DNA of 27,250 nt from Patescibacteria group bacterium (GTDB lineage: Bacteria; Patescibacteriota; Patescibacteriia; Magasanikbacterales; GWA2-37-8), in assembly GCA_004321885.1 (NCBI GenBank), contig SCQK01000009.1, positions 1 through 27,250 on the forward strand, read 5' to 3'. Below the pieces are notes generated by a model. The model searched no databases, was not told the DNA's origin, and worked only from the letters and a program-made list of their open reading frames with translations. Positions 8,742 through 27,234 of the stretch are shown piece by piece (within the stretch, counting starts at the first letter, position 1; every line of letters begins with the position of its first letter). Both the position numbers and the translations under genes were made by a program.

Positions 8742-9893
8742 ATGTACCCAGCACGGTTAATTTTAAACACCGGCCAAGAATTTCTCGGCCTTTCACCCGC
8801 CTGGCAAAAAGGCGACTTTTACGGTTTACCCTCACACCAAAAATTTTGGTGTGAGGGCGAGGTTGTTTTTACGACCGGCATGACCGGCTATGTGGAAACT
8901 CTCACCGATCCTTCGTATGCCGGACAAATTATCGTCTTCACCTATCCGCTCATCGGCAACTACGCCGTGCCGCCGGCCAAATTCTGGGAATCGGAAAAAA
9001 TCCACGCGGCCGGAGTGGTGGTAGGCGAGGCGTGCCAGTGGCCTGATACCCCCTCCTCACCTCCCTCCCGAAACAAGTTCGGGACAGGCTCTTATAAAGG
9101 GGGAGGGACTTTGGCCGGATGGCTAAGAGAACAAAAGGTGCCTTTACTCACCGGGGTGGATACTCGCCTGCTTACCAAAACACTACGCGAGAAGGGTGCC
9201 ACGCCCGGAGCGATTACGTCTTACCCCTACCTAACCTCCCCCTTAAAAAGGGGGAGGAACAGGAGGGGGTATAATTTCTTTGACCCGAACGAAACAGATC
9301 TGGTGGCGCTGGTTTCTCCCAAAAGACCGACCACTTACGGCAAGGGGAAAAAGAGAATCATCGCCGTTGATTGCGGGATGAAAAAAAATCTGCTCCGCTC
9401 ACTCTTAAAATTACCGCTGACTATAAAAATCGTGCCGTACGACTACGATTATAACAAAGAAAAATTTGACGGCGTGTTTATCTCCAATGGCCCGGGCGAC
9501 CCGGAACGTTGCGGCCGAACGATAGAAATTCTGCGCCGCGCCATGAAAAAGAAAAAACCGATTTTCGGCGTCTGTCTGGGCAACCAGCTGTTAGCACTGG
9601 CGGCCGGAGCCAAAACCTACAAACTGCCCTTTGGCCACCGCGGACAAAATCAACCCTGCCAAGACAGCGCCACTGGCCGTTGTTATATCACCAGCCAAAA
9701 CCACGGCTACGCCGTGAACCCGGCCACCCTGCCGCCGGACTGGCGCGTGAGTTTCAAAAACTTAAACGACGATTCAGTGGAAGGCATCGGCCACAAATCA
9801 TTGCCGTTTTTCGCCGTGCAATTTCATCCCGAAGCGGCGCCCGGCCCCGCAGACACGCAGTGGCTTTTTGAAAAATTTTATGAAACTTTATAA
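8742..9893 (+). CDS. carA: carbamoyl-phosphate synthase small (glutaminase) subunit
   Basis: 'VVFTTGMTGYVETLTDPSYAGQIIVFTYPLIGNY', 'PIFGVCLGNQLLALAAGAKTYKLPFGHRGQNQP' (catalytic Cys), 'FAVQFHPEA'. Two in-frame family B element insertions. Confidence 0.9.
   Translation: MYPARLILNTGQEFLGLSPAWQKGDFYGLPSHQKFWCEGEVVFTTGMTGYVETLTDPSYAGQIIVFTYPLIGNYAVPPAKFWESEKIHAAGVVVGEACQWPDTPSSPPSRNKFGTGSYKGGGTLAGWLREQKVPLLTGVDTRLLTKTLREKGATPGAITSYPYLTSPLKRGRNRRGYNFFDPNETDLVALVSPKRPTTYGKGKKRIIAVDCGMKKNLLRSLLKLPLTIKIVPYDYDYNKEKFDGVFISNGPGDPERCGRTIEILRRAMKKKKPIFGVCLGNQLLALAAGAKTYKLPFGHRGQNQPCQDSATGRCYITSQNHGYAVNPATLPPDWRVSFKNLNDDSVEGIGHKSLPFFAVQFHPEAAPGPADTQWLFEKFYETL
9049..9108 (+). repeat. family B element (compound) in-frame in carA
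   Basis: 'cccctcctcacctccctcccgaaacaagttcgggacaggctcttataaagggggaggg' encodes 'PSSPPSRNKFGTGSYKGGG'. Contains inner hairpin TCCCGAA-acaag-TTCGGGA. Confidence 0.6.
9235..9272 (+). repeat. family B element in-frame in carA
   Basis: 'cctccccc-ttaaaaa-gggggagg-aacaggagggggtat' encodes 'SPLKRGRNRRGY'. Confidence 0.65.
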
Positions 9894-13110: not shown

Positions 13111-13191
13111 TGTCATTGCGAGGAGCGGAGCGACGAAGCAATCCCATACAATTAAGGGGATTGCCACGGCCCTGCGGGCCTCGCAATGACA
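13111..13191 (+). repeat. family A full-length palindromic element filling the carB-pyrB intergenic space
   Basis: Begins immediately after the carB TAA. Termini 'tgtcattgcgagg...cctcgcaatgaca' are 13-bp perfect inverted repeats. Inner hairpin 'gcaatccc...gggattgc'. Confidence 0.75.
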
Positions 13192-13199
13192 ATACAATT

Positions 13200-14120
13200 A
13201 TGCCAAACACACTCAAAGGCAGGGACATAATTTCCATCGCGGAACTTTCCAAGCCGGAAATTCTGCTGGTGCTAAAAAACGCGCAAGAATTAAAAAAACA
13301 CCCGCGCCCGAAACTGCTGGAAGGGCTGGTGATGGGCAGTTGTTTTTTTGAACCCAGCACGCGCACGCGCTTGTCGTTTGAAACAGCCATGCAGAAGTTG
13401 GGCGGACGGGTAATCGGCTTTGCCGACCCGGGCGTGACTTCGGCCAAGAAAGGCGAGTCGCTGTACGACGCCATAAAAATCATCGGCCAATACGTGGATG
13501 TCATCGCCATGCGCCATCCGTTGGAGGGAGCGGCGCGACGCGCGGCCGAGGCCACGGACAAACCAATCATCAACGGCGGCGACGGAGCCAACCAGCACCC
13601 CACCCAAACCCTGCTGGACTTGTTCACTATTCAAGAATGCCAGAAAAAATTAAGCAACCTTCATATCGCCATGGTCGGCGACCTGAAATATGGCCGCACC
13701 GTGCACTCGCTGGCCCAGGCGCTTACCCATTTTGGCGCCCGCCTGTATTTCGTGGCGCCCGACAGCTTGCAGATGCCCGCGTATATTTGCGATGAATTAA
13801 AAACCAAAGGCGTCAAATTCTCCATGCACAAAAAAATGGAAGAGGTAATCGGCAAAGTTGATATTTTTTACATGACCCGCATCCAGGGCGAACGTTTTGC
13901 CGACCCGATGGAGTACGAAAAAGTAAAAAACAGTTTCGTGCTCAAGGCCGACATGCTAAAAAACGCCAAACCAAACCTGAAAATCTTGCACCCCTTGCCG
14001 CGCGTGAACGAAATTGAAACAGCCATAGACAAAACAAAATTCGCCTACTATTTCCAGCAAGCGGAAAACGGGCTCTATGCCCGCCAGGCCCTGCTGGCGA
14101 TGGTGTTGGGAAAAATTTAA
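13200..14120 (+). CDS. pyrB: aspartate carbamoyltransferase catalytic subunit
   Basis: '[11 protein letters not shown]', 'HPTQTLLDL' and 'LHPLPR' motifs. Start taken at 'MPNTLKGRD' (ATG 13200), just after the element. The ORF-track 13092 start reads through the palindrome. Confidence 0.9.
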
Positions 14121-14123
14121 TAA

Positions 14124-14208
14124 TGTCATTGCGAGGCCCAAGGGGCCGAAGCAATCTCAGACAAGTAAGGGATTGCCACGTCGGCCTGCAGGCCTCCTCG
14201 CAATGACA
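14124..14208 (+). repeat. family A full-length palindromic element filling the pyrB-pyrI intergenic space
   Basis: 'tgtcattgcgagg...cctcctcgcaatgaca'. Same architecture as 13111-13191, with a different centre. Confidence 0.75.
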
Positions 14209-14690: not shown

Positions 14691-15857
14691 ATGAGCCGGC
14701 TCATAACTTTACCCGCTTTGATTGACCCGCACGTGCATTTTCGTACCCCGGGTTCCGAGCACAAAGAGGATTGGATTTGCGGAGCGCGCGCCGCCTTCGC
14801 CGGCGGATACACCACGGTGATTGACATGCCGAACAACAACCCGCCGGCGATTGATGAAGAGTCATTGAATAACAAAATCAAGCTCGTGGAACAACAACTG
14901 TCATTCCTGCGAAAGCAGGAAGGGAGCCCTTCGGGCTCGGAATTCATTTCTGTCCACCCATATTTTTATCTCGGGGTTACTCCCCTCCCCCTTGATAAGG
15001 GGGAGGCAGGGTGGGGGTCGGCGGTAGCCCTCAAAATGTTCATGGGTTCCAGCACCGGCAGTTTGCTGGTGGACAAATACGAAGACCAGGAAAAAATATT
15101 CGCCAAAGCCGCTGAACTTGATTTGCTGGTGGCAGTGCACGCAGAAGATGATGAAACAATAAAAAATAATCAACTGTCATTCCAGCAAAAGCTGGAATCC
15201 ATCGCCAATCCAGTCGCTCTTCACTCGCAAATCCGCTCGCGTGAGGCGGCGATAAAAGCCGTGTCGCAAGCGATTGAACTGGCGGAAAAGACCGGCGCGC
15301 GATTATATATCTGCCATATTAGCACAAAGGAAGAAGCTGAATTGGTTAAATCGGCTAAAGAGCGCGGAGCCAAAATTTATGCCGAAGTCACACCGCATCA
15401 TTTGTTTCTGAACGAAAGCGCGTATGAAACATTGGAGACAAAAGCGCAAATGAATCCGCCTCTGCGCACGGCCGCGGACCAAGCGGCGCTCTGGCAGGCG
15501 ATAAACGACGGAGTAATAGACACCATCGGCACCGACCACGCTCCGCATACTTTGGAAGAAAAAAATCAACCATACCCCAAATCGCCTTCGGGCGTGCCCG
15601 GCATTGAGACATGTTTGCCGCTATTGCTCAACGCGTACAATCAGGGTAAAATCAGTTTAGAGAAAATAGTGGAATTATGCCGGACAAATCCGCAAAAAAT
15701 ATTCCGTTTGCCTGATAACAGTGACGAGGTGATTGTGGATTTGGATTTGGAAAAAGAGGTAAAAAATGAGAATTTAAAAACTAAATGCGGCTGGTCGCCC
15801 TTTGCTGGGTGGAATCTAAAGGGGTGGCCGATAAAAACGATAATTATGAAAAAGTAA
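14691..15857 (+). CDS. pyrC: dihydroorotase
   Basis: 'LIDPHVHFRTPG' metal-binding motif, 'GTDHAPH'. Contains three in-frame element insertions. The stop codon lies inside the left terminal repeat of a MITE-like element. Confidence 0.85.
   Translation: MSRLITLPALIDPHVHFRTPGSEHKEDWICGARAAFAGGYTTVIDMPNNNPPAIDEESLNNKIKLVEQQLSFLRKQEGSPSGSEFISVHPYFYLGVTPLPLDKGEAGWGSAVALKMFMGSSTGSLLVDKYEDQEKIFAKAAELDLLVAVHAEDDETIKNNQLSFQQKLESIANPVALHSQIRSREAAIKAVSQAIELAEKTGARLYICHISTKEEAELVKSAKERGAKIYAEVTPHHLFLNESAYETLETKAQMNPPLRTAADQAALWQAINDGVIDTIGTDHAPHTLEEKNQPYPKSPSGVPGIETCLPLLLNAYNQGKISLEKIVELCRTNPQKIFRLPDNSDEVIVDLDLEKEVKNENLKTKCGWSPFAGWNLKGWPIKTIIMKK
14899..14921 (+). repeat. family A short hairpin in-frame in pyrC
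   Basis: 'tgtcattcctgcgaaagcaggaa' is TTCCTGC-GAAA-GCAGGAA. Encodes 'SFLRKQE'. Followed by a small hairpin 'gagccc-ttc-gggctc'. Confidence 0.7.
14982..15018 (+). repeat. family B element in-frame in pyrC
   Basis: 'cccctccccc-ttgataa-gggggagg-cagggtgggggt' encodes 'PLPLDKGEAGWG'. Confidence 0.7.
15175..15198 (+). repeat. family A short hairpin in-frame in pyrC
   Basis: 'tgtcattccagcaaaagctggaat' is ATTCCAGC-AAAA-GCTGGAAT. Encodes 'LSFQQKLE'. Confidence 0.7.
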
Positions 15858-16014
15858 GAAATTTGAACGGTGGTCTCGCTCGGATAGTTACGGACTCGCT
15901 GTCGCTTTTTGACCCAATGAGCATAATCGCATGGATCAAAATGCCTTCGGCACCGCTCCAACTCGTCTCGTAACTGCACCTCGCTCGCCCAATGTTCAAA
16001 TTTCTTACTTTTTC
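15848..16014 (+). mobile_element. MITE-like element: 21-bp perfect terminal inverted repeats flanking about 125 bp
   Basis: Left 'gaaaaagtaagaaatttgaac' (15848-15868) is the exact reverse complement of right 'gttcaaatttcttactttttc' (15994-16014). The interior carries direct 'CTCGCTCG' repeats. The pyrC TAA is within the left repeat. Confidence 0.5.
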
Positions 16015-16028
16015 TCACATCCATTTTT

Positions 16029-16982
16029 ATGAAACATCTAATCTCCCTAAAGGAACAAACAAAAGAAGACCTGCTGGAAATTTTGGATTTAGCAAAAAAA
16101 GTTAAAGCCACATACAAGGCCGGTGAGACGATGGAGCCATTAAAAAACAAAACCCTGCTCATGCTTTTTCAAAAAAGCTCCACGCGCACGCGCCTGTCGT
16201 TTGAGGCCGGCATAACCGAACTGGGCGGACACGCCATTTTTCTGGACAGCCGCGCCACGCAATTTTCGCTCACTGATTTCGGCGATGAAATAAAAGCCGT
16301 AATGCGCTTTGGCGACATCCTGATGTTTCGGGCCATGAAAGCGGCGGACGTGGAAAAGGCGGCGGGCTTCAATCAGATTCCGGTGATAGACGGTTGCAGT
16401 GAAAAATATCACCCGTGCCAGGCCTTGGGAGACATTTTGACAATGAGTGAGCATGCCAATGGACTGGAAAACGTGAAAAAAATCACTTGGCTGGGAATTG
16501 AAAACAACGTCTCTAACACCCTGACGCTGGCCGGCGCCAAACTGGGAATTGAAGTGACCATCGCCGCGCCCGAAGCCAACCCGGCCAGCGTGGACGCGGA
16601 GTTAAACGCCCAGGCCTCTGCCGTCGGCAAAGTGACACGCACTTTGAATTTGGCCGAAGCGCTGGCTGGCGCGAATTTCATCCACACCGACACCTGGATG
16701 GATATGGAATTTTTTTCCGACGGAAAAGTGAAGCCGCAATTTGAAGCCGAATACGAACGGCGCAAACGGGTGTTCACGCCTTTTCAACTAAACGCGGGCT
16801 TAATAAACACCCACGCCCCGCAAGCGAAAATTATGCACTGCATGCCGTGTCATGTGGGCTATGAAATTTCACGCGACGCCATAGACCATCCCAATTCAAT
16901 AATTTTTGACCAGGCGGAAAATCGCAAACACATCCAAAAAGCGATTATTCTTTGGCTACTTGGTATTCCCTCCCCTTTATAA
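16029..16982 (+). CDS. ornithine-carbamoyltransferase-family transcarbamylase paralog (substrate uncertain)
   Basis: 'STRTRLSFE', 'HPCQALGDILT', 'HCMPC' (OTC HCLP-type) and a C-terminal 'SIIFDQAENRKH' closely like OTCase. The ornithine-binding 'DxxxSMG' is 'DTWMDME'. Confidence 0.75.
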   Translation: MKHLISLKEQTKEDLLEILDLAKKVKATYKAGETMEPLKNKTLLMLFQKSSTRTRLSFEAGITELGGHAIFLDSRATQFSLTDFGDEIKAVMRFGDILMFRAMKAADVEKAAGFNQIPVIDGCSEKYHPCQALGDILTMSEHANGLENVKKITWLGIENNVSNTLTLAGAKLGIEVTIAAPEANPASVDAELNAQASAVGKVTRTLNLAEALAGANFIHTDTWMDMEFFSDGKVKPQFEAEYERRKRVFTPFQLNAGLINTHAPQAKIMHCMPCHVGYEISRDAIDHPNSIIFDQAENRKHIQKAIILWLLGIPSPL

Positions 16983-17917: not shown

Positions 17918-17921
17918 ATGT

Positions 17922-18067
17922 CCCCCTCCCCTATTTGCGAAAAGAGTGAGAGAAAAAGCAAACTTGTTGCTTTTTCCGAACGAATGAGCAAATATCCGCA
18001 GATATTAGGGGAGGGATAAACCCCGTTAGAGGTCTGCAGACCTCTAACGGGGTAAAGGGTGGGGTTA
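17922..18067 (+). repeat. compound family B region in the pyrD-pyrK intergenic space
   Basis: 'cccctcccc' (17922) pairs with 'ggggaggg' (18008) across a 70-nt insert that contains AAAAAGCAA-acttg-TTGCTTTTT. This is followed by a perfect hairpin 'ccccgttagaggtctgcagacctctaacgggg' (18021-18052). A 'taaagggtggggtt' SD-like tail precedes the pyrK ATG. Confidence 0.6.
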
Positions 18068-18072
18068 AACGT

Positions 18073-18945
18073 ATGGATAGTACAAAATTCTTAAAAATAG
18101 AAAAAATAACAGACGAAACCCCGTTCGTCAAAACATTCTATTTTAATCATCGCCTAAACAGCAAGCCCGGGCAATTTGTGATGCTCTGGCTACCGGGAAT
18201 TGACCAAAAACCGTTTTCCATCGGCTGGGAAGATGAAAACGGCTTTGCCCTGACTGTGTTCAATCGCGGACCGACGACGAACAAACTGTTTGAAATGAAA
18301 GCCGGCGAACGAGTGGGCATTAGCGGGCCCTACGGTACTTCTTTTTCCGTGCGCCCAAACACGCGCTATATCATGGTCGCCGGCGGCTATGGCGCCGCGC
18401 CTCTTTCTTTTTTGGCCAAGCAGCTATCTGTCATTGCGAGGAGCGTAGCGACGAAGCAATCCCAATCTACAAAAATTGATTTCCTCCTCGGCGCCCGCTC
18501 GGCCGAACACGTGCTATTTGAAGACCGTCTGTCAAAATTACCCAACACCAAAATCCACATCGCCACCGACGACGGCAGTAAGGGACATAAGGGATTTGTG
18601 ACCGACCTGCTTTCATCTGTCATTCCTGCGAAAGCAGGAATCCACGACAACTCACTGGATGCCCGTTTTCACGGGCATGACATATTCGTCTGCACTTGCG
18701 GCCCCGAACTGATGGAAAAAAAAGTTTTGGACGCTTGCAACGTCGCCGGCGTGGAATGCGAAATCAGCATTGAACGCTACATGAAATGCGGCGTGGGCGT
18801 GTGCGGACAATGCGCCGTGGACGACCTGGGCCTGCATATGTGCAAAGAAGGGCCGGTGGTAAGCGGCGCGCTCGCCAGTCAAATTAAAGAGTTCGGCGTC
18901 TACCATCGCGACAAAAGCGGGAAAAAAGTATACTTCGAAAATTAA
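18073..18945 (+). CDS. pyrK: dihydroorotate dehydrogenase electron-transfer (FAD/2Fe-2S) subunit
   Basis: FAD/NAD-binding fold and C-terminal 'CGVGVCGQCAV' cluster motif. Two in-frame family A insertions. Confidence 0.85.
   Translation: MDSTKFLKIEKITDETPFVKTFYFNHRLNSKPGQFVMLWLPGIDQKPFSIGWEDENGFALTVFNRGPTTNKLFEMKAGERVGISGPYGTSFSVRPNTRYIMVAGGYGAAPLSFLAKQLSVIARSVATKQSQSTKIDFLLGARSAEHVLFEDRLSKLPNTKIHIATDDGSKGHKGFVTDLLSSVIPAKAGIHDNSLDARFHGHDIFVCTCGPELMEKKVLDACNVAGVECEISIERYMKCGVGVCGQCAVDDLGLHMCKEGPVVSGALASQIKEFGVYHRDKSGKKVYFEN
18429..18463 (+). repeat. family A half-element in-frame in pyrK
   Basis: 'tgtcattgcgaggagcgtagcgacgaagcaatccc' matches the left 35 nt of the 13111 element with one mismatch. 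Encodes 'SVIARSVATKQSQ'. Confidence 0.75.
18618..18642 (+). repeat. family A short hairpin in-frame in pyrK
   Basis: 'tgtcattcctgcgaaagcaggaatc' matches the pyrC copy at 14899. Encodes 'SVIPAKAGIH'. Confidence 0.75.
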
Positions 18946-19006: not shown

Positions 19007-19082
19007 GAAACGAACCGAGGGACCAAGTGACCCAAGCCCTTCCGATTTGGCGAAAGGGCTGAGGCACCAAGGATCCCAGGGC

Positions 19083-19730
19083 CTACTTGCCGCGAGGAAG
19101 GAGATAGGAGGCGCCGAAGCCGTAGACAACCCAGCGGACGTCCAGCACCCAGCGAGCGCCGACCCAGGAGAGACAGGCCACGTAGAGGCCGCCACGCCGG
19201 CCGCGCAAAAGCGTGCCCGGCAGGACGATGATCTTGTCCTGCATCTCCTTCGGGATCTCGGCCTGGCACTCCAGCATACGCTTGCCATCCACCAGGCCGT
19301 AGTTGGCCTTGAGGACGACGGCGCGGGCGCGCATGACCTCGCCGTTGACATAGCCCGGGTCATCGGGCTCGAGGAAGGACACATACTCCAAGTCCTTCAC
19401 CTCGAACTGCGACGGGGCCACATCCTCCACCACCTCCCACTTGCGCTTCTTGCCTGCCTCGTCCTCGTACTCGGGGATGAGGTCGGCGGCGAGCAACTCG
19501 GACGGGAGCTGGTCGCGCTTGATCGATGCCGCCACGCTTTCGCCGTTTTCCTCGCCGATCGGCTCCAGCTTCAGCCGGAGCTTGCCGGCGCGAAACAGCT
19601 CCACGTTCTGCGCGCCCGTCTCACATCCGCCGAACTCCGCCCACAGCTTGAGGATCATGGCCCAGATCTGCTTCCCTGTCAGACCCTCCAGCACGGCCTC
19701 CAGTGTCTTCCCTTCCACTCTCGAACTCAT
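19083..19730 (-). CDS. hypothetical protein in a GC-rich (about 62% GC) inserted segment
   Basis: ATG with AAGGAG 7 nt upstream. Balanced E/K/D/L composition, unlike the Ala/Arg/Leu-rich overlapping frames. Terminator downstream. Interrupts pyrK...pyrE. Confidence 0.5.
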   Translation of the reverse strand: MSSRVEGKTLEAVLEGLTGKQIWAMILKLWAEFGGCETGAQNVELFRAGKLRLKLEPIGEENGESVAASIKRDQLPSELLAADLIPEYEDEAGKKRKWEVVEDVAPSQFEVKDLEYVSFLEPDDPGYVNGEVMRARAVVLKANYGLVDGKRMLECQAEIPKEMQDKIIVLPGTLLRGRRGGLYVACLSWVGARWVLDVRWVVYGFGASYLLPRGK

Positions 19731-19895
19731 GGCTGTTCTCCTTTCCGGCGCCTCGCCAGAATGGCAATTTGCCCCGCCCCGGGGCTCGGGTTTTTATGCT
19801 AAAAATAACAAAGAGCTAACAGCGATTTATATCACAACATTACTGCTTCTGTCAAGCTAAACACCGTCACAACCGCCATATCCTTTCACAAACCC

Positions 19896-19928
19896 TTGCG
19901 CGATTATCTGCGCGATTCTTGCGCGATT
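19896..19928 (+). promoter_or_regulatory. three direct repeats of TGCGCGATT (11-12 bp spacing) just upstream of the fic -10
   Basis: 'ttgcgcgatt' 19896, 'ctgcgcgatt' 19908, 'ttgcgcgatt' 19919. Operator- or iteron-like. Confidence 0.5.
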
Positions 19929-19938
19929 TAATTTTTTA

Positions 19939-19947
19939 TGGTATGAT
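19939..19947 (+). promoter_or_regulatory. extended -10 promoter TGGTATGAT for fic-pyrE-pyrF
   Basis: TGnTATGAT 29 nt upstream of the fic ATG. Same box type as 'TGGTATAAT' at 6712-6720. Confidence 0.45.
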
Positions 19948-19975
19948 ATTGGCAAGGAATTCTTCGGCCTAAACT

Positions 19976-21031
19976 ATGTTTGAACCAAAGTATAAAATCA
20001 CCAATCAAATCATCCAGATGCTCACCGCCATCGCCGAGGCCAAGGCGATTATTGAACGCGCGCGCCTTTTGCCGAAGCACGAACTCAAACTGCGACGCCA
20101 GGCCCTTCTCCGCATGACCCACAGCTCCACGGCCATAGAAGGCAACCGGCTGAATATGCGCGAAGTGGAGGCCGTGGCGGCGCGCAAAAAAGTGGATGCC
20201 CCGGAACGCGAAATCTATGAAGTAAAAAACTACCTGGAAGCGATTCGCTACATTGAAAAAGTCGTAAAAAACAACCAGCCAATCACCGAAAAGATTATCT
20301 TACAAATTCACCGGCTTGTAACCGACAAAACTTTGCCGGCACATTCCTCGGGGCAATATCGCAAAGGGCCGGTGTATGTGGTGCGGCGCTGGAGAGACGG
20401 CCGCCAGGAAGTTTTGTATACCGCGGCTGGCGCCGGACAAGTCCCCGGTCTTATGGCCGGCTTAACGCGCTGGCTCGCTGAAAGTGAAACGCAAAATATC
20501 AGCCCAGTCATCGTGGCCGGTATCGCGCACCAGGAAATCGCGGCTATTCACCCCTTTGCCGACGGTAATGGCCGCACCGCGCGCGCCCTGGCCACGCTTA
20601 TCCTTTACCGACGCGGCTACGACTTTCGCCGCCTTTTCGCCCTGGAAGATTTCTACAACGAAGACAGGCCGTCGTATTATCGCGCCATCAACGTCGGCAA
20701 AAACTACCAACAGCGCCGCGTTGATTTTACGCCATGGCTGGAATATTTTGTGCGCGGATTTAAGGAAGAAATTATTAAAGTGAAAAATAACGTGCTCACA
20801 CTATCGGCCAAAAAGGTTGACAAAAAAATTGAAGCGCAAATTTATCTTGATAAAGACCAGCTCAAAATTTTGGAGTTTGCCGACCAGATGGGAAAAATAT
20901 CCGTGGGCGACGTGGTGGATATTTTGAGTTGTCCCAAACGCACCGCCCAATCGTATCTACAAAAATTAAAAAAACTGAAAATTATCCGGCAAGTCGGCAA
21001 AGGGCCGGCCAGCGGATATATAATAGCGTGA
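19976..21031 (+). CDS. fic: Fic/Doc family protein (class II, N-terminal inhibitory helix) with C-terminal winged-helix domain
   Basis: Fic motif 'HPFADGNGRTARAL'. Inhibitory motif 'STAIEG' ([ST]xxxE[GN]) near the N-terminus. C-terminal HTH-like 'ISVGDVVDILSCPKRTAQSYLQKL'. Stop is 6 nt before the pyrE ATG. Confidence 0.85.
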   Translation: MFEPKYKITNQIIQMLTAIAEAKAIIERARLLPKHELKLRRQALLRMTHSSTAIEGNRLNMREVEAVAARKKVDAPEREIYEVKNYLEAIRYIEKVVKNNQPITEKIILQIHRLVTDKTLPAHSSGQYRKGPVYVVRRWRDGRQEVLYTAAGAGQVPGLMAGLTRWLAESETQNISPVIVAGIAHQEIAAIHPFADGNGRTARALATLILYRRGYDFRRLFALEDFYNEDRPSYYRAINVGKNYQQRRVDFTPWLEYFVRGFKEEIIKVKNNVLTLSAKKVDKKIEAQIYLDKDQLKILEFADQMGKISVGDVVDILSCPKRTAQSYLQKLKKLKIIRQVGKGPASGYIIA

Positions 21032-21640: not shown

Positions 21641-21754
21641 CCCCTCCCCCACCCTCCCCTTATAAAGGGGAGGGTGCAATTTTCCTCCCCCTTTATAAGG
21701 GGGAGGCTCGCCACCACACCAAATGCTTTGGTGTGGTGGCGAGGAGGGGGTAAA
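21641..21754 (+). repeat. two tandem family B hairpins plus a 14-bp perfect hairpin and SD tail in the pyrE-pyrF spacer
   Basis: 'ccctcccc-ttataaa-ggggaggg', 'cctccccc-tttataa-gggggagg', 'ctcgccaccacacc-aaatgcttt-ggtgtggtggcgag' (21707-21743), then 'gagggggtaaaaatt' before ATG. Confidence 0.7.
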
Positions 21755-24164: not shown

Positions 24165-24250
24165 ACCCCCTCCTCTGTCCTCCACCTAAAAGGGGGAGAA
24201 AAGTGACAGTGTTACCCCTCCCTCGCCCTCCCCTTATAAAGGGGAGGGAA
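24165..24250 (+). repeat. compound family B element in the nif3-hypothetical spacer
   Basis: 'cccccctcctctgtcctccacctaaaagggggag...cccctccctcgccctcccc-ttataaa-ggggaggg'. Confidence 0.6.
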
Positions 24251-25233: not shown

Positions 25234-25270
25234 CTCTCCCCTTTATAAGGGGAGAGACAGAGAGGGGTAA
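25234..25270 (+). repeat. family B element upstream of nif3
   Basis: 'ctctcccc-tttataa-ggggagag-acagagaggggtaat'. Confidence 0.65.
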
Positions 25271-25559: not shown

Positions 25560-26118
25560 ACGCTCTGGTGGAGTATTCGCCCGTTTCGGTATTTACCAGA
25601 ATCTCTTCGCCTTCTTTTATGAATATCGGGGCCTGAATTTTTAATCCGTTTTCCAAAGTGATTTCTTTGGTGACGTTGCCCGAAGCGCTGTCGCCCTTGA
25701 CCGCCGGCGGCGCGTCAATCACCTTGTATTGAATCTTTTTCGGTATCTGCGCGGAAACCGGCCGGCCCTCGTACAGCCCCACGACCACGTCTATCCCTTC
25801 TTTCAGATACTTGGCCTCGTCGCCGAGCAAATCGTTGTTCATCTCTATCTGCTCATAGGTGCTCATGTTCATGAAAGCGAAATTGGCGCCGCTTTTGTAC
25901 AAATACTGCATAGAATGAAACTCCACCTCCACGATATCCACGCTTTCGCTGGTTTTGTAGGTTATTTCAATCACCTTGCCCGAGGCCAAACTTTTCATCC
26001 GCACGCGCACAAAAGCCGCGCCCTTGCCAGGGTTGACGTGCTGAAAATCCACCACGACAAACAAATCATTCTGGTGCCTGATGACTACCCCTTTTCTGAT
26101 TTCGCTGGTAGGGGCCAT
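25558..26118 (-). CDS. efp: translation elongation factor P
   Basis: 'VDFQHVNPGKGAAFVRVRMK' (modifiable Lys in the PGKG loop). Three OB/KOW-like domains. 186 aa. Confidence 0.9.
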   Translation of the reverse strand: MAPTSEIRKGVVIRHQNDLFVVVDFQHVNPGKGAAFVRVRMKSLASGKVIEITYKTSESVDIVEVEFHSMQYLYKSGANFAFMNMSTYEQIEMNNDLLGDEAKYLKEGIDVVVGLYEGRPVSAQIPKKIQYKVIDAPPAVKGDSASGNVTKEITLENGLKIQAPIFIKEGEEILVNTETGEYSTRA

Positions 26119-26130
26119 AAAAAAACTCTA

Positions 26131-26241
26131 AATGTCAAAATCCAAATTTCCAATATCAAATCAATTTTTAATGTCAAATTTCAAATGTCCAATTTGACAT
26201 TTGGATTTTTGTCATTGATTTGACATTGGAAATTTGACATT
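26131..26241. repeat. array of 9-11-nt 'TTTGACATT' repeats: three in - orientation, then three or four in + orientation
   Basis: 'aatgtcaaa' at 26131, 26170 and 26184 (variant). 'tttgacatt' at 26193, 26218 and 26233. 'tttgtcatt' at 26207. Near-palindromic centre 'aaatgtccaatttgacattt'. Lies in the efp upstream region and runs into the epmA 3' end. Confidence 0.7.
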
Positions 26242-27234
26242 AATATTCTCTATTTGGTCTTTCACGCTTTGAAACATTACCTCGTTTATATCCCTGGCTC
26301 CGGTAAACAATAATACCATGCGGTCAACCCCCAAGGCAATACCGGCCATGTCTTGGCGCGCTGCCTCGGGCAAGCCGGCAATCGCGGCGATAAAATCCGG
26401 GTCAACGCCCCAAACCGGCTTGCCCGCCCCCAGCCGCTTGTTTTTGTCTTCCTCCAAACGCTTTTTTTGCTCGGCCGCGTCGGTCAGTTCGCCAAAGGCG
26501 TTGGCCAATTCCAAACCGCCAATATACAATTCAAACCTCTCGGCGTAACGTTGGTCATGTTCGCACAAACGATTGAGCGAGGTCATCTGCTGGGGATAAT
26601 CATACACAAAAACCGGCCACTCGGCGCCCAGCTTTGGTTCTATTTCATTCAAAAAAATCTTAAAAAACAAATCTTCATAGGCGTCGCGCGGGTCCGCGGC
26701 GAAACCGCGCGCCAAAACCAGCTCGCGCATTTTTTCCAGCTCCAAATATTCATCCAAATTCACGCCAAGATATTTTTGCCACACTTCTTTCATGCTTAGC
26801 CGGTCCCAAACCCCCTCCTTTATTCTCCCCCTTGGGAGAGGAAGTTGAGAAGCAACAAACTTAAACAAATTTTCCGTGTCGTCCATTATCTCGGTCAGGG
26901 TTCCGGGGGCGCGGTACCACTCAATCATGGTAAATTCGGTGTTGTGCGTGCGGCCAAACTCTTCGTAGTCGCGAAAAACCTTGCCAATTTCAAAAATTTT
27001 TTCATAACCCGCAGCCAACAATTTTTTCAAGCCGTATTCGGGCGAAGTGCGCAGATAAAATTGTTCGGTCACGCCGTTTGGAGCGTGGAAAACCGCTGAC
27101 ACCGGGTTCAAATACGGCTCCTGGCTGGCCAAACGCACAGCCACGGGCGTGTCGGTCTCCACAAAACCCGCGCGCCAAAAAAATTCCCGGATTAACTTTA
27201 TTATCTGAATTCGCGCGTCATATATCCCGCGCAA
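26212..27234 (-). CDS. epmA: EF-P lysine beta-lysyltransferase (class II lysyl-tRNA-synthetase-like, GenX/PoxA)
   Basis: 'TSPEYGLKKLLAAGYEKIFEIGKVFRDYEEFGRTHNTEFTMIEWYRA' (class II motifs 1 and 2), 'GVDRMVLL'. Directly upstream of efp. Contains an in-frame family B element. The last roughly 13 aa are encoded by the repeat array. Confidence 0.8.
   Translation of the reverse strand: MRGIYDARIQIIKLIREFFWRAGFVETDTPVAVRLASQEPYLNPVSAVFHAPNGVTEQFYLRTSPEYGLKKLLAAGYEKIFEIGKVFRDYEEFGRTHNTEFTMIEWYRAPGTLTEIMDDTENLFKFVASQLPLPRGRIKEGVWDRLSMKEVWQKYLGVNLDEYLELEKMRELVLARGFAADPRDAYEDLFFKIFLNEIEPKLGAEWPVFVYDYPQQMTSLNRLCEHDQRYAERFELYIGGLELANAFGELTDAAEQKKRLEEDKNKRLGAGKPVWGVDPDFIAAIAGLPEAARQDMAGIALGVDRMVLLFTGARDINEVMFQSVKDQIENINVKFPMSNQ
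26808..26846 (-). repeat. family B element in-frame in epmA (- orientation)
   Basis: - strand 'cctctccc-aag-ggggagaa-taaaggagggggt' encodes '[13 protein letters not shown]'. Same tail as the carB copy. Confidence 0.7.

Follow-up and report, generated by a model that had tools for sequence, protein, structure and literature searches.

A 167-bp hairpin-forming insert between pyrC and an OTC-like gene in a Patescibacteria pyr operon

The insert and its inner core

We have examined here the junction between pyrC and an adjacent carbamoyltransferase gene (OTC) in a 27,250-bp stretch of DNA, hereafter the window, which is an entire contig. Comparison of its PyrC homologues places the host in the Patescibacteria, beside Magasanikbacteria, and the best relatives are 58-71% identical in this protein. 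Annotation with Pfam and NCBIfam gives the plus-strand gene order gatB-carA-carB-pyrB-pyrI-pyrC-OTC-pyrD-pyrK, and relatives conserve the order pyrB-pyrI-pyrC-OTC-(EamA)-pyrD-pyrK. Between pyrC and OTC lies a 167-bp insert that is non-coding, forms a hairpin and is bounded by inverted repeats (Table 1).

The two arms that bound the insert are perfectly complementary over 21 nt, as the original prediction had described, and a TGG/CCA pairing beyond a 2-nt mismatch brings them to 26 nt at 92% complementarity. Even with three mismatches allowed the 21-mer is found at these two sites only in the window, and none of 100 shuffles contained it. The supposition that the context is AT-poor does not hold: the window has 49% GC and the arms only 24%. 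The pyrC stop does lie inside the left arm, where the last codons read ATG AAA AAG TAA and are followed by a second in-frame stop (TGA, 15864-66). On the other side of the insert, the 14-nt spacer TCACATCCATTTTT ahead of the OTC ATG contains no Shine-Dalgarno-like motif. All plus-strand frames are closed through the element, in line with the predicted lack of an open reading frame (ORF), but two minus-strand frames are open, one of them belonging to a 173-amino-acid antisense ORF with no Pfam match. The interior of the element is not palindromic.

Between the arms lie two copies of the 8-nt string CTCGCTCG in the same orientation, and the window has no others, whichever strand is read. An 8-nt direct repeat at positions mirrored to within 1 nt, as here, arose in 0.2% of 20,000 shuffles of the interior, and any 8-nt direct repeat in 7% of them. 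Excision of the 97 bp between the copies together with one CTCGCTCG leaves a clean 62-nt hairpin of about -29 kcal/mol on either strand, made up of a 21-bp stem, a 2x2 mismatch, 3 further base pairs and the loop T-CTCGCTCG-C. The excised 97-bp core has imperfect 11-12-bp terminal inverted repeats (TIRs) of its own (TAGTTACG-GAC / GTCTCGTAACTG), and GC content steps up from 24% in the arms to 51% in the core. On the strength of the mirrored 8-mers, the clean residual hairpin, this GC step and the core TIRs, we read the 167-bp unit as probably one small element nested in the loop of another. The direct repeats that had been noted in the interior are thus present as the two CTCGCTCG copies, and this pair is more readily explained as an 8-bp target duplication made by a nested element than as a motif of the interior. 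An 8-10-bp inversion in one arm behind the same-orientation copies was also considered and is less parsimonious than target duplication.

The very stable long-range stem that had been predicted around ~125 nt is recovered when the full element is folded as RNA, with -60.6 kcal/mol on the plus strand (z = -7.8 vs shuffles) and -75 kcal/mol on the minus strand (z = -8.3 vs shuffles). The 97-bp core folds to -25.2 kcal/mol on the plus strand (z = -1.8) and to -36.7 kcal/mol on the minus strand (z = -3.6), and the 125-nt interior, which includes both 8-mers, gives z = -0.8 and z = -3.6 on the same two strands, so that on the mRNA strand the interior alone is not significantly structured (z = -0.8 to -1.8). 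By inspection, the 8-mers face each other as CGAGCGAG / CGAGCGAG with tandem G.A on the minus strand and as tandem U.C on the plus strand, and the minus-strand gain of the 125-nt interior appears on the same basis to come partly from these facing 8-mers and otherwise from a few G.U pairs. The weak fold of the core on the mRNA strand argues against selection for any folding of the operon mRNA other than the outer stem. The strand asymmetry may leave room for a strand-specific role as single-stranded DNA or antisense RNA.

Table 1. Coordinates of the insert, its parts and related features (window positions unless a lineage is named; an asterisk marks a stop codon)
Feature	Position	Strand	Remarks
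pyrC, dihydroorotase	14691..15857	+	Pfam/NCBIfam; C-terminal tail shortened to GWP+8 residues
Whole composite palindromic insert, 167 bp	15848..16014	.	pyrC/OTC-like junction; orthologous junction empty in seven related lineages
Left perfect 21-nt arm GAAAAAGTAAGAAATTTGAAC	15848..15868	+	encodes (M)KK end and stop of pyrC
pyrC stop TAA	15855..15857	+	within left arm
TGG	15871..15873	+	pairs with CCA at 15989-91, lengthening the outer stem past the mismatch
CTCGCTCG, left copy, exact 8-nt direct repeat	15875..15882	+	starts after first 27 nt; putative target-site duplication, formerly hairpin loop
Inner core, 97 bp, 51% GC, putative nested element	15883..15979	.	stronger fold on minus strand
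Inner left inverted repeat TAGTTACGGAC	15885..15895	+	pairs with 15965-15976
Two apical hairpins of core: TTTTGACCCAATG...CATGGATCAAAA, then TGCC-TTC-GGCA	15907..15952	.	from predicted fold
Inner right inverted repeat GTCTCGTAACTG	15965..15976	+	one mismatch and one indel vs left copy
CTCGCTCG, right copy	15980..15987	+	followed by last 27 nt of element
Right perfect 21-nt arm GTTCAAATTTCTTACTTTTTC	15994..16014	+	ends 14 nt ahead of OTC start codon
14-nt spacer TCACATCCATTTTT	16015..16028	+	before OTC ATG; size as native spacers of relatives
OTC-like carbamoyltransferase gene, ornithine-carbamoyltransferase-like pyrB paralogue	16029..16982	+	Pfam/NCBIfam; start MKHLISLKEQ as in relatives
~83-bp palindromic element AATGTCATTGCGAGG...CCTCGCAATGACA, two full copies	13111-13193 (carB/pyrB), 14124-14207 (pyrB/pyrI)
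Half GTCATTGCGAGG element in frame in pyrK	18429-18461		encodes peptide SVIARSVATKQS
Related GTCATTCC...GGCATGAC element in frame in pyrK	~18612-18676		encodes about PAKAGIHDNSLDARFHGHD
TAGTTCAYAGCCAATAG units in L017	11078-11270, 12219-12310, 13228-13283, 14097-14192		TAG in all three frames
Short or overlapping pyrC/OTC junction	L077 (closest), L005, L012, L006, L014, L011, L020		spacer -4 to 16 nt; no Shine-Dalgarno-like motif
Long pyrC/OTC junction	window, L004, L008, L019, L024, L017, L022, L029, L074		spacer 78-183 nt
PyrC tails	window; L004; L019; L017		IKTIIMKK*; ITITNIN*; VKIVHSQ*; IMTV*

The junction in related lineages and the PyrC tail

The spacer between pyrC and OTC was measured in 16 distinct lineages, the window included. 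The two genes are 1-16 nt apart or overlap in seven of these, indicating an empty orthologous site in relatives with 58-71% PyrC identity, and it is on account of these empty sites that we regard the 167-bp unit as an insert. The long spacers of the other nine visibly contain one or more long hairpins in most lineages, and these junction inserts are mutually unrelated in sequence, save for one family common to L017 and L019. The insert of L004 (4171-4342 of that locus) is another, GC-rich hairpin of ~160 bp with arms TTGGCATAGTCGTAAAACTCTG / CAGAGTATTACGACTACGCCAA; it is a singleton in the sequences examined and adjoins a shortened pyrC tail.

After the conserved GWP, the PyrC tail has 12 residues in 54 of the 116 homologues (consensus VATILNNKIYKI). 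A reduction to 4-8 residues is seen precisely in those cases in which the stop is overlapped by a hairpin, namely the window and three of the relatives (Table 1). The window tail has 8 residues and its MKK* end is encoded by the left arm, bearing out the suggestion that the insertion had altered the pyrC C-terminus, and the comparison with relatives that had been proposed as a check gives the same picture, with tails shortened wherever an insert overlaps the stop. The shortened tails imply that the junction is a recurrent landing site, that the last PyrC residues are dispensable, and that the insert rewrites the C-terminus.

Origin of the insert

[quoted passage not shown] An AT-rich 62-nt hairpin (27 + 8 + 27 nt) would have landed across the 3' end of pyrC, replacing its last few codons and supplying a new stop, and a 97-bp element with TIRs would then have entered the hairpin loop, duplicating the 8-bp target CTCGCTCG. 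We infer both this order of events and, by analogy with the multi-copy cousins of the unit in relatives, its mobility. The unit would be transcribed within the carAB-pyrBI-pyrC-OTC-pyrDK operon mRNA, where a stem of ~24-26 bp would bracket the pyrC stop and end 14 nt before the OTC start. By the time it terminates at 15855-57, a ribosome would have opened up the left arm, and the stem, on re-forming, would loop out 125 nt and keep the pyrC stop and the OTC start close together. Since the stem would re-form in this way, a palindromic insert should be far less harmful at this junction than unstructured DNA. Translational coupling of the two genes is suggested by the relatives, in which OTC has no Shine-Dalgarno-like motif and lies 1-16 nt from the pyrC stop or overlaps it. 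The effect of the insert on expression is most likely near-neutral. Its stem (21 bp perfect, plus 3 bp after the 2x2 mismatch) would, by analogy with known substrates, be long enough for RNase III, which needs a nearly unbroken RNA duplex of some 22 bp or more.

A number of observations weigh against a transposed, nested element. The annotated genes of the window include no transposase. The flanks of the outer unit, ATAATTAT on the left and TCACATCC on the right, have no direct repeat in common, and the inner TIRs are imperfect and begin 2-3 nt from the CTCGCTCG repeat. A recent empty site is lacking, since even the closest relative shares just ~70% identity in PyrC. Neither the outer arm nor the interior has a second copy in the 27-kb contig, and blastn-short and nhmmer searches with the element against 89 related loci (1.4 Mb) gave only chance matches of 13-17 nt. 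The 21-mer arm, which was the only DNA query used on the GTDB species genomes, the JGI metagenomes and, apart from one pattern, IMG/VR, has no match in the GTDB species genomes or in IMG/VR; in plasmids, phages or E. coli genomes a distant blastn search found none for the interior, and a strict gapped inverted-repeat pattern made from its inner TIRs has none in IMG/VR. A search of 5.8 billion proteins and an exhaustive phmmer search of 1.84 billion representatives, with the open-frame segments of the element translated and concatenated so that all six frames were represented, likewise found no homologue of the element translations. The 21-mer arm does have two single-arm matches in JGI metagenomes, L002 (1149-1171) and L003 (335-359), neither with a partner arm or with flanks that are similar beyond 2-4 nt. 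This is about what chance would give, by our own estimate, for an A-rich 21-mer in ~10^12 bases, and the 2 and 4 bases by which the two matches extend into the right-arm flank (GAGAAAAAGTAAGAAATTTGAAC) are probably also chance in A-rich sequence.

The missing outer duplication and the absence of any other known copy would be expected if the hairpin had been made in place, with the left arm as the native end of pyrC, the right arm as its inverted copy produced by template switching or foldback synthesis during the capture of foreign DNA, and nothing transposed as a 167-bp unit. We think this rather unlikely. In its favor, reading through the TAA gives ...TIIMKK*EI*, an 11-residue tail near the usual 11-12 in which K8 matches the NNK of the consensus; the TAA is one change from TAT/TAC or TTA; and the interval left from the TGA to the OTC ATG, 16 nt, is that of the native spacers in L011 and L014. 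However, the residues encoded by the arm do not include the aromatic one conserved at tail position 10, and the consensus is matched only at the one lysine, in A-rich sequence. The ~57% DNA identity to the tail of L077 comes from a hand alignment of 21 nt of AT-rich sequence and is not significant, and in relatives unrelated, multi-copy hairpins overlap and replace the same tail. This origin is kept as a rival because the match of the left arm to the tail consensus is too weak to decide.

An unlikely explanation, too, is that the element is a functional structured RNA, which would either have been selected at this junction to act in cis on the operon mRNA, as an attenuator or a site of processing or stability, or be a small antisense RNA from the minus strand. 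The very stable fold of the full element is consistent with such a role, as are the significance of the core fold on the minus strand only (z = -3.6 vs -0.8 to -1.8), the tandem G.A pairs that the minus-strand CGAGCGAG copies would form by inspection, and the retention of some insert, mostly hairpin-forming, at this junction in nine lineages. Yet the junction inserts of relatives are unrelated by sequence or size and are missing from seven lineages, neither strand showed a promoter-like site, the mRNA-strand interior folds no better than shuffles, and the strand asymmetry hangs on a few mismatches. The known RNA family that the original prediction had set against a mobile element did not emerge. 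Rfam 15 has no match in the window at the gathering score, and even at E <= 10 neither strand of the element belongs to any family, the only match being a generic long-stem one to a plant microRNA precursor (12.7 bits vs 211); the other match at this threshold, to a small nucleolar RNA (15 vs 75 bits), is in the OTC start region. Searches for tRNA and transfer-messenger RNA returned nothing. Since the element has no homologues, there is no covariation to support an RNA structure.

Alternatively, the stem, which has an A-run at one outer end and a T-run at the other, could be an intrinsic, possibly bidirectional, terminator or polarity barrier (a GAAAAAG A-tract, a long stem and a CUUUUUC U-tract) that splits the operon after pyrC, and a shorter hairpin with the same GAAAAAG/CTTTTTC base is present in the pyrD-pyrK spacer (17952-17976). 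We regard this as very improbable: a terminator scan of 15500-16400 finds no plus-strand site, the stem beside the U-run is AT-rich and the loop is 125 nt vs the 3-8 nt of a terminator, no separate promoter was detected near the downstream OTC, pyrD, pyrK, pyrE and pyrF, and the order of the downstream pyr genes is the same in relatives without the element. Hardly credible is an assembly artefact in the form of a chimeric inverted duplication. Metagenome assembly and amplification can make inverted repeats, but the interior is unique and contains no copy of the flanks, and we reject an artefact because gene order is conserved across the junction and a separate Logan assembly contig of run SRR8426592 is identical through the insert region. 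Proteins of other window genes had identical matches only in short Logan contigs of the same run, and nothing beyond the window.

There is, finally, a slim chance that selection keeps hairpin inserts at this junction, through coupling via the looped-out stem together with RNase III punctuation, the core possibly acting as a strand-specific RNA or single-stranded DNA with the minus-strand CGAGCGAG G.A helix. Unrelated palindromes would then repeatedly colonise the pyrC stop/OTC start of Magasanikbacteria-like Patescibacteria, which has no Shine-Dalgarno motif. A real regulatory role is nevertheless unlikely, because the junction inserts are unrelated and seven lineages have none.

The favored origin, in selfish or neutral palindromic DNA, can be compared with known systems. 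Bacterial MITEs are shorter than 500 bp, have TIRs of ~4-30 bp, retain direct repeats in younger copies and give stable stem-loop transcripts (PMC10969869). The insert resembles them (PMC10969869, PMC2229807) in being non-coding and shorter than 500 bp, in its TIRs of 21 bp (outer) and 11-12 bp (inner), in the 8-bp direct repeat round its inner part, in its site between co-transcribed genes, in its predicted stable stem-loop transcript and in the altered gene end. It is unlike them in being a single known copy with no outer target duplication and no known parent insertion sequence with matching ends, and in that only its arms, rather than the whole element, are AT-rich. The description of the element as MITE-like is borne out in part, by its size, its inverted repeats, the empty site in relatives and the putative inner duplication; no outer duplication was found, nor a second copy in the contig, the related loci or the collections searched. 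Correia elements (CREE/NEMIS) of Neisseria are also similar, at ~100-160 bp with ~26-bp inverted repeats and frequent co-transcription with their neighbors; their TIR stems in Neisseria mRNAs are cleaved by RNase III (PMC10969869, PMC2649163), a mechanism that may extend by analogy to the 24-26-bp stem of the insert. The insert is not itself a Correia element: its boundaries read T/G and C/T, so there is no TA duplication, its host belongs to a different phylum, and our searches, which did not include Neisseria genomes or the Correia consensus, found no similarity.

Copies of the enterobacterial repetitive intergenic consensus (ERIC) at the 3' ends of genes alter mRNA stability (PMC10969869). 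ERIC/IRU and Yersinia palindromic repeats are, like the insert, palindromes with imperfections, are about as long, and lie in the transcribed intergenic parts of operons; the insert differs in its perfect arms and non-palindromic centre. Identity with ERIC, REP or bacterial interspersed mosaic elements (BIMEs) was rejected because blastn (word size 11, E <= 1) found no match in 5,426 genomes of E. coli, in which ERIC and REP are present. REP and BIME sequences, like the insert, form hairpins just past stop codons within operons, but REPs are GC-rich, 20-40 nt long, present in hundreds of copies and associated with a RAYT transposase, none of which is shown for the 167-bp element. A precedent for a second element entering a hairpin loop is given by IS1397 and ISKpn1, which insert into REP loops. 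REPs within ~15 nt of a stop codon can reportedly lower upstream translation, according to Liang, Rudd and Deutscher in 2015. Rickettsia palindromic elements (RPEs) are likewise selfish palindromes by which proteins of a reduced genome are altered in sequence, as the 167-bp element does to the pyrC tail and its sister elements do in frame in pyrK; RPEs, however, sit inside ORFs and are translated through, whereas the 167-bp element ends an ORF, and no sequence relation between them is known. Two other candidates were tried and rejected. For an integron attC site, the ends GAAAAAG / CTTTTTC are not R'' (RYYYAAC) / R' (GTTRRRY) sites, AAC/GTT is confined to the inner end of the arms, where the adjacent bases misfit the attC motifs, and the flanking genes form a conserved operon, not a cassette array. 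For a retron non-coding RNA, the neighbors are pyrC and the OTC-like gene, and there is no reverse transcriptase in the window.

Palindromic families in the pyr operon and their meaning

Palindromic repeats are not confined to the pyrC/OTC junction. The ~83-bp element of the carB/pyrB and pyrB/pyrI junctions (Table 1) belongs to a family, AATGTCATTGCGAGG...CAATGACA, that also supplies the pyrC/OTC insert of L008 (4225-4305). The listed GTG start of pyrB (13092) runs through the first of the two window copies, and for this reason the real start is probably the ATG at 13200. Both of the elements that lie in frame in pyrK (18073-18945), the first a half copy of the ~83-bp element and the second related to it, are absent from the PyrK of three relatives. 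The pyrD/pyrK, pyrE/pyrF and several other window spacers are nested palindromes. In the pyrD/pyrK spacer (17918-18072), CCCCCTCCCCTA...TAGGGGAGGG encloses a GAAAAAGCAA-ACTTG-TTGCTTTTTC hairpin that has its outer 7 bp in common with the 167-bp element, and a perfect 17+17 palindrome follows at 18020-18053. Palindromes of the CCCCTTATAAAGGGG / GGGGGAGG type were seen at several junctions (21656-21702, 24225-24250, 25235-25260, 9091-9106 and 9224-9268), and similar ones inside the carA ORF (8742-9893) at 8829-8857, ~9060-9110 and 9224-9268, where they may be in-frame inserts or reflect a mis-set start codon. The efp/epmA spacer (26115-26257), between convergently listed genes, is dense in overlapping AT-rich inverted repeats with AATGTCAAATTTCCAAT units. 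Between pyrK and pyrE (19047-21031), a 251-amino-acid ORF without a family and a gene with a Fic/DOC domain break the run of pyr genes; in relatives pyrE directly follows pyrK.

The relatives present a similar picture. The TAGTTCAYAGCCAATAG family occupies four successive junctions in L017 (pyrC/OTC, OTC/pyrD, pyrD/pyrK and pyrK/pyrE), is also found in L019, L024, L018 and L079, and supplies the pyrC stop in L017 and L019, as the 167-bp element does in the window. Several PyrC homologues end in ...IVHSQ*, ...IIFNQ* or ...VIHNS*, apparently derived from this family. The junction elements of L074 and L022 recur within their own loci.

The AATGTCATTGCGAGG...CAATGACA, TAGTTCAYAGCCAATAG and CCCCTTATAAAGGGG families are like the 167-bp element in occurring in the same genomes and at pyr stop/start junctions, and they are multi-copy. 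The element has no significant sequence similarity to any of the three, the string TCGCTCGC..AATG that it has in common with palindromic families being too short to count. A relation of its interior to the GTCATTGCGAGG family was rejected, with only CATTG and CGAG in common. Folding of the 14 window intergenic spacers of at least 48 nt gave z <= -3.6 against mononucleotide shuffles on at least one strand for 10 of them. Taken with the other families in the window, these folded spacers indicate that the genome is heavily colonised by many palindromic inserts, the 167-bp element among them.

The 167-bp insert thus looks like an ordinary palindromic insert of a known, MITE/REP-like kind and not a new kind of regulator. 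Its interest lies in providing a worked example of how palindromic DNA remodels the very compact operons of Patescibacteria, with the last residues of an enzyme replaced, a stop codon donated, and two genes pushed apart that overlap, or are spaced by 1-16 nt, in relatives. It also seemingly records two successive insertions, that of a hairpin being followed by that of an element into its loop. More widely, nine lineages have unrelated inserts at one junction, whole pyr operons contain one repeat family at all their junctions, and pyrK includes repeat-derived peptides in frame. A literature search on palindromic repeats or MITEs in Patescibacteria (the Candidate Phyla Radiation), and on the repeat sequence itself, found nothing relevant and no paper describing palindromic families in this phylum; the insert opens a view of the repeat landscape of Patescibacteria operons. 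For annotation it carries a warning: in these genomes a C-terminus that is short or odd, or a long 'intergenic' gap, often derives from repeats.

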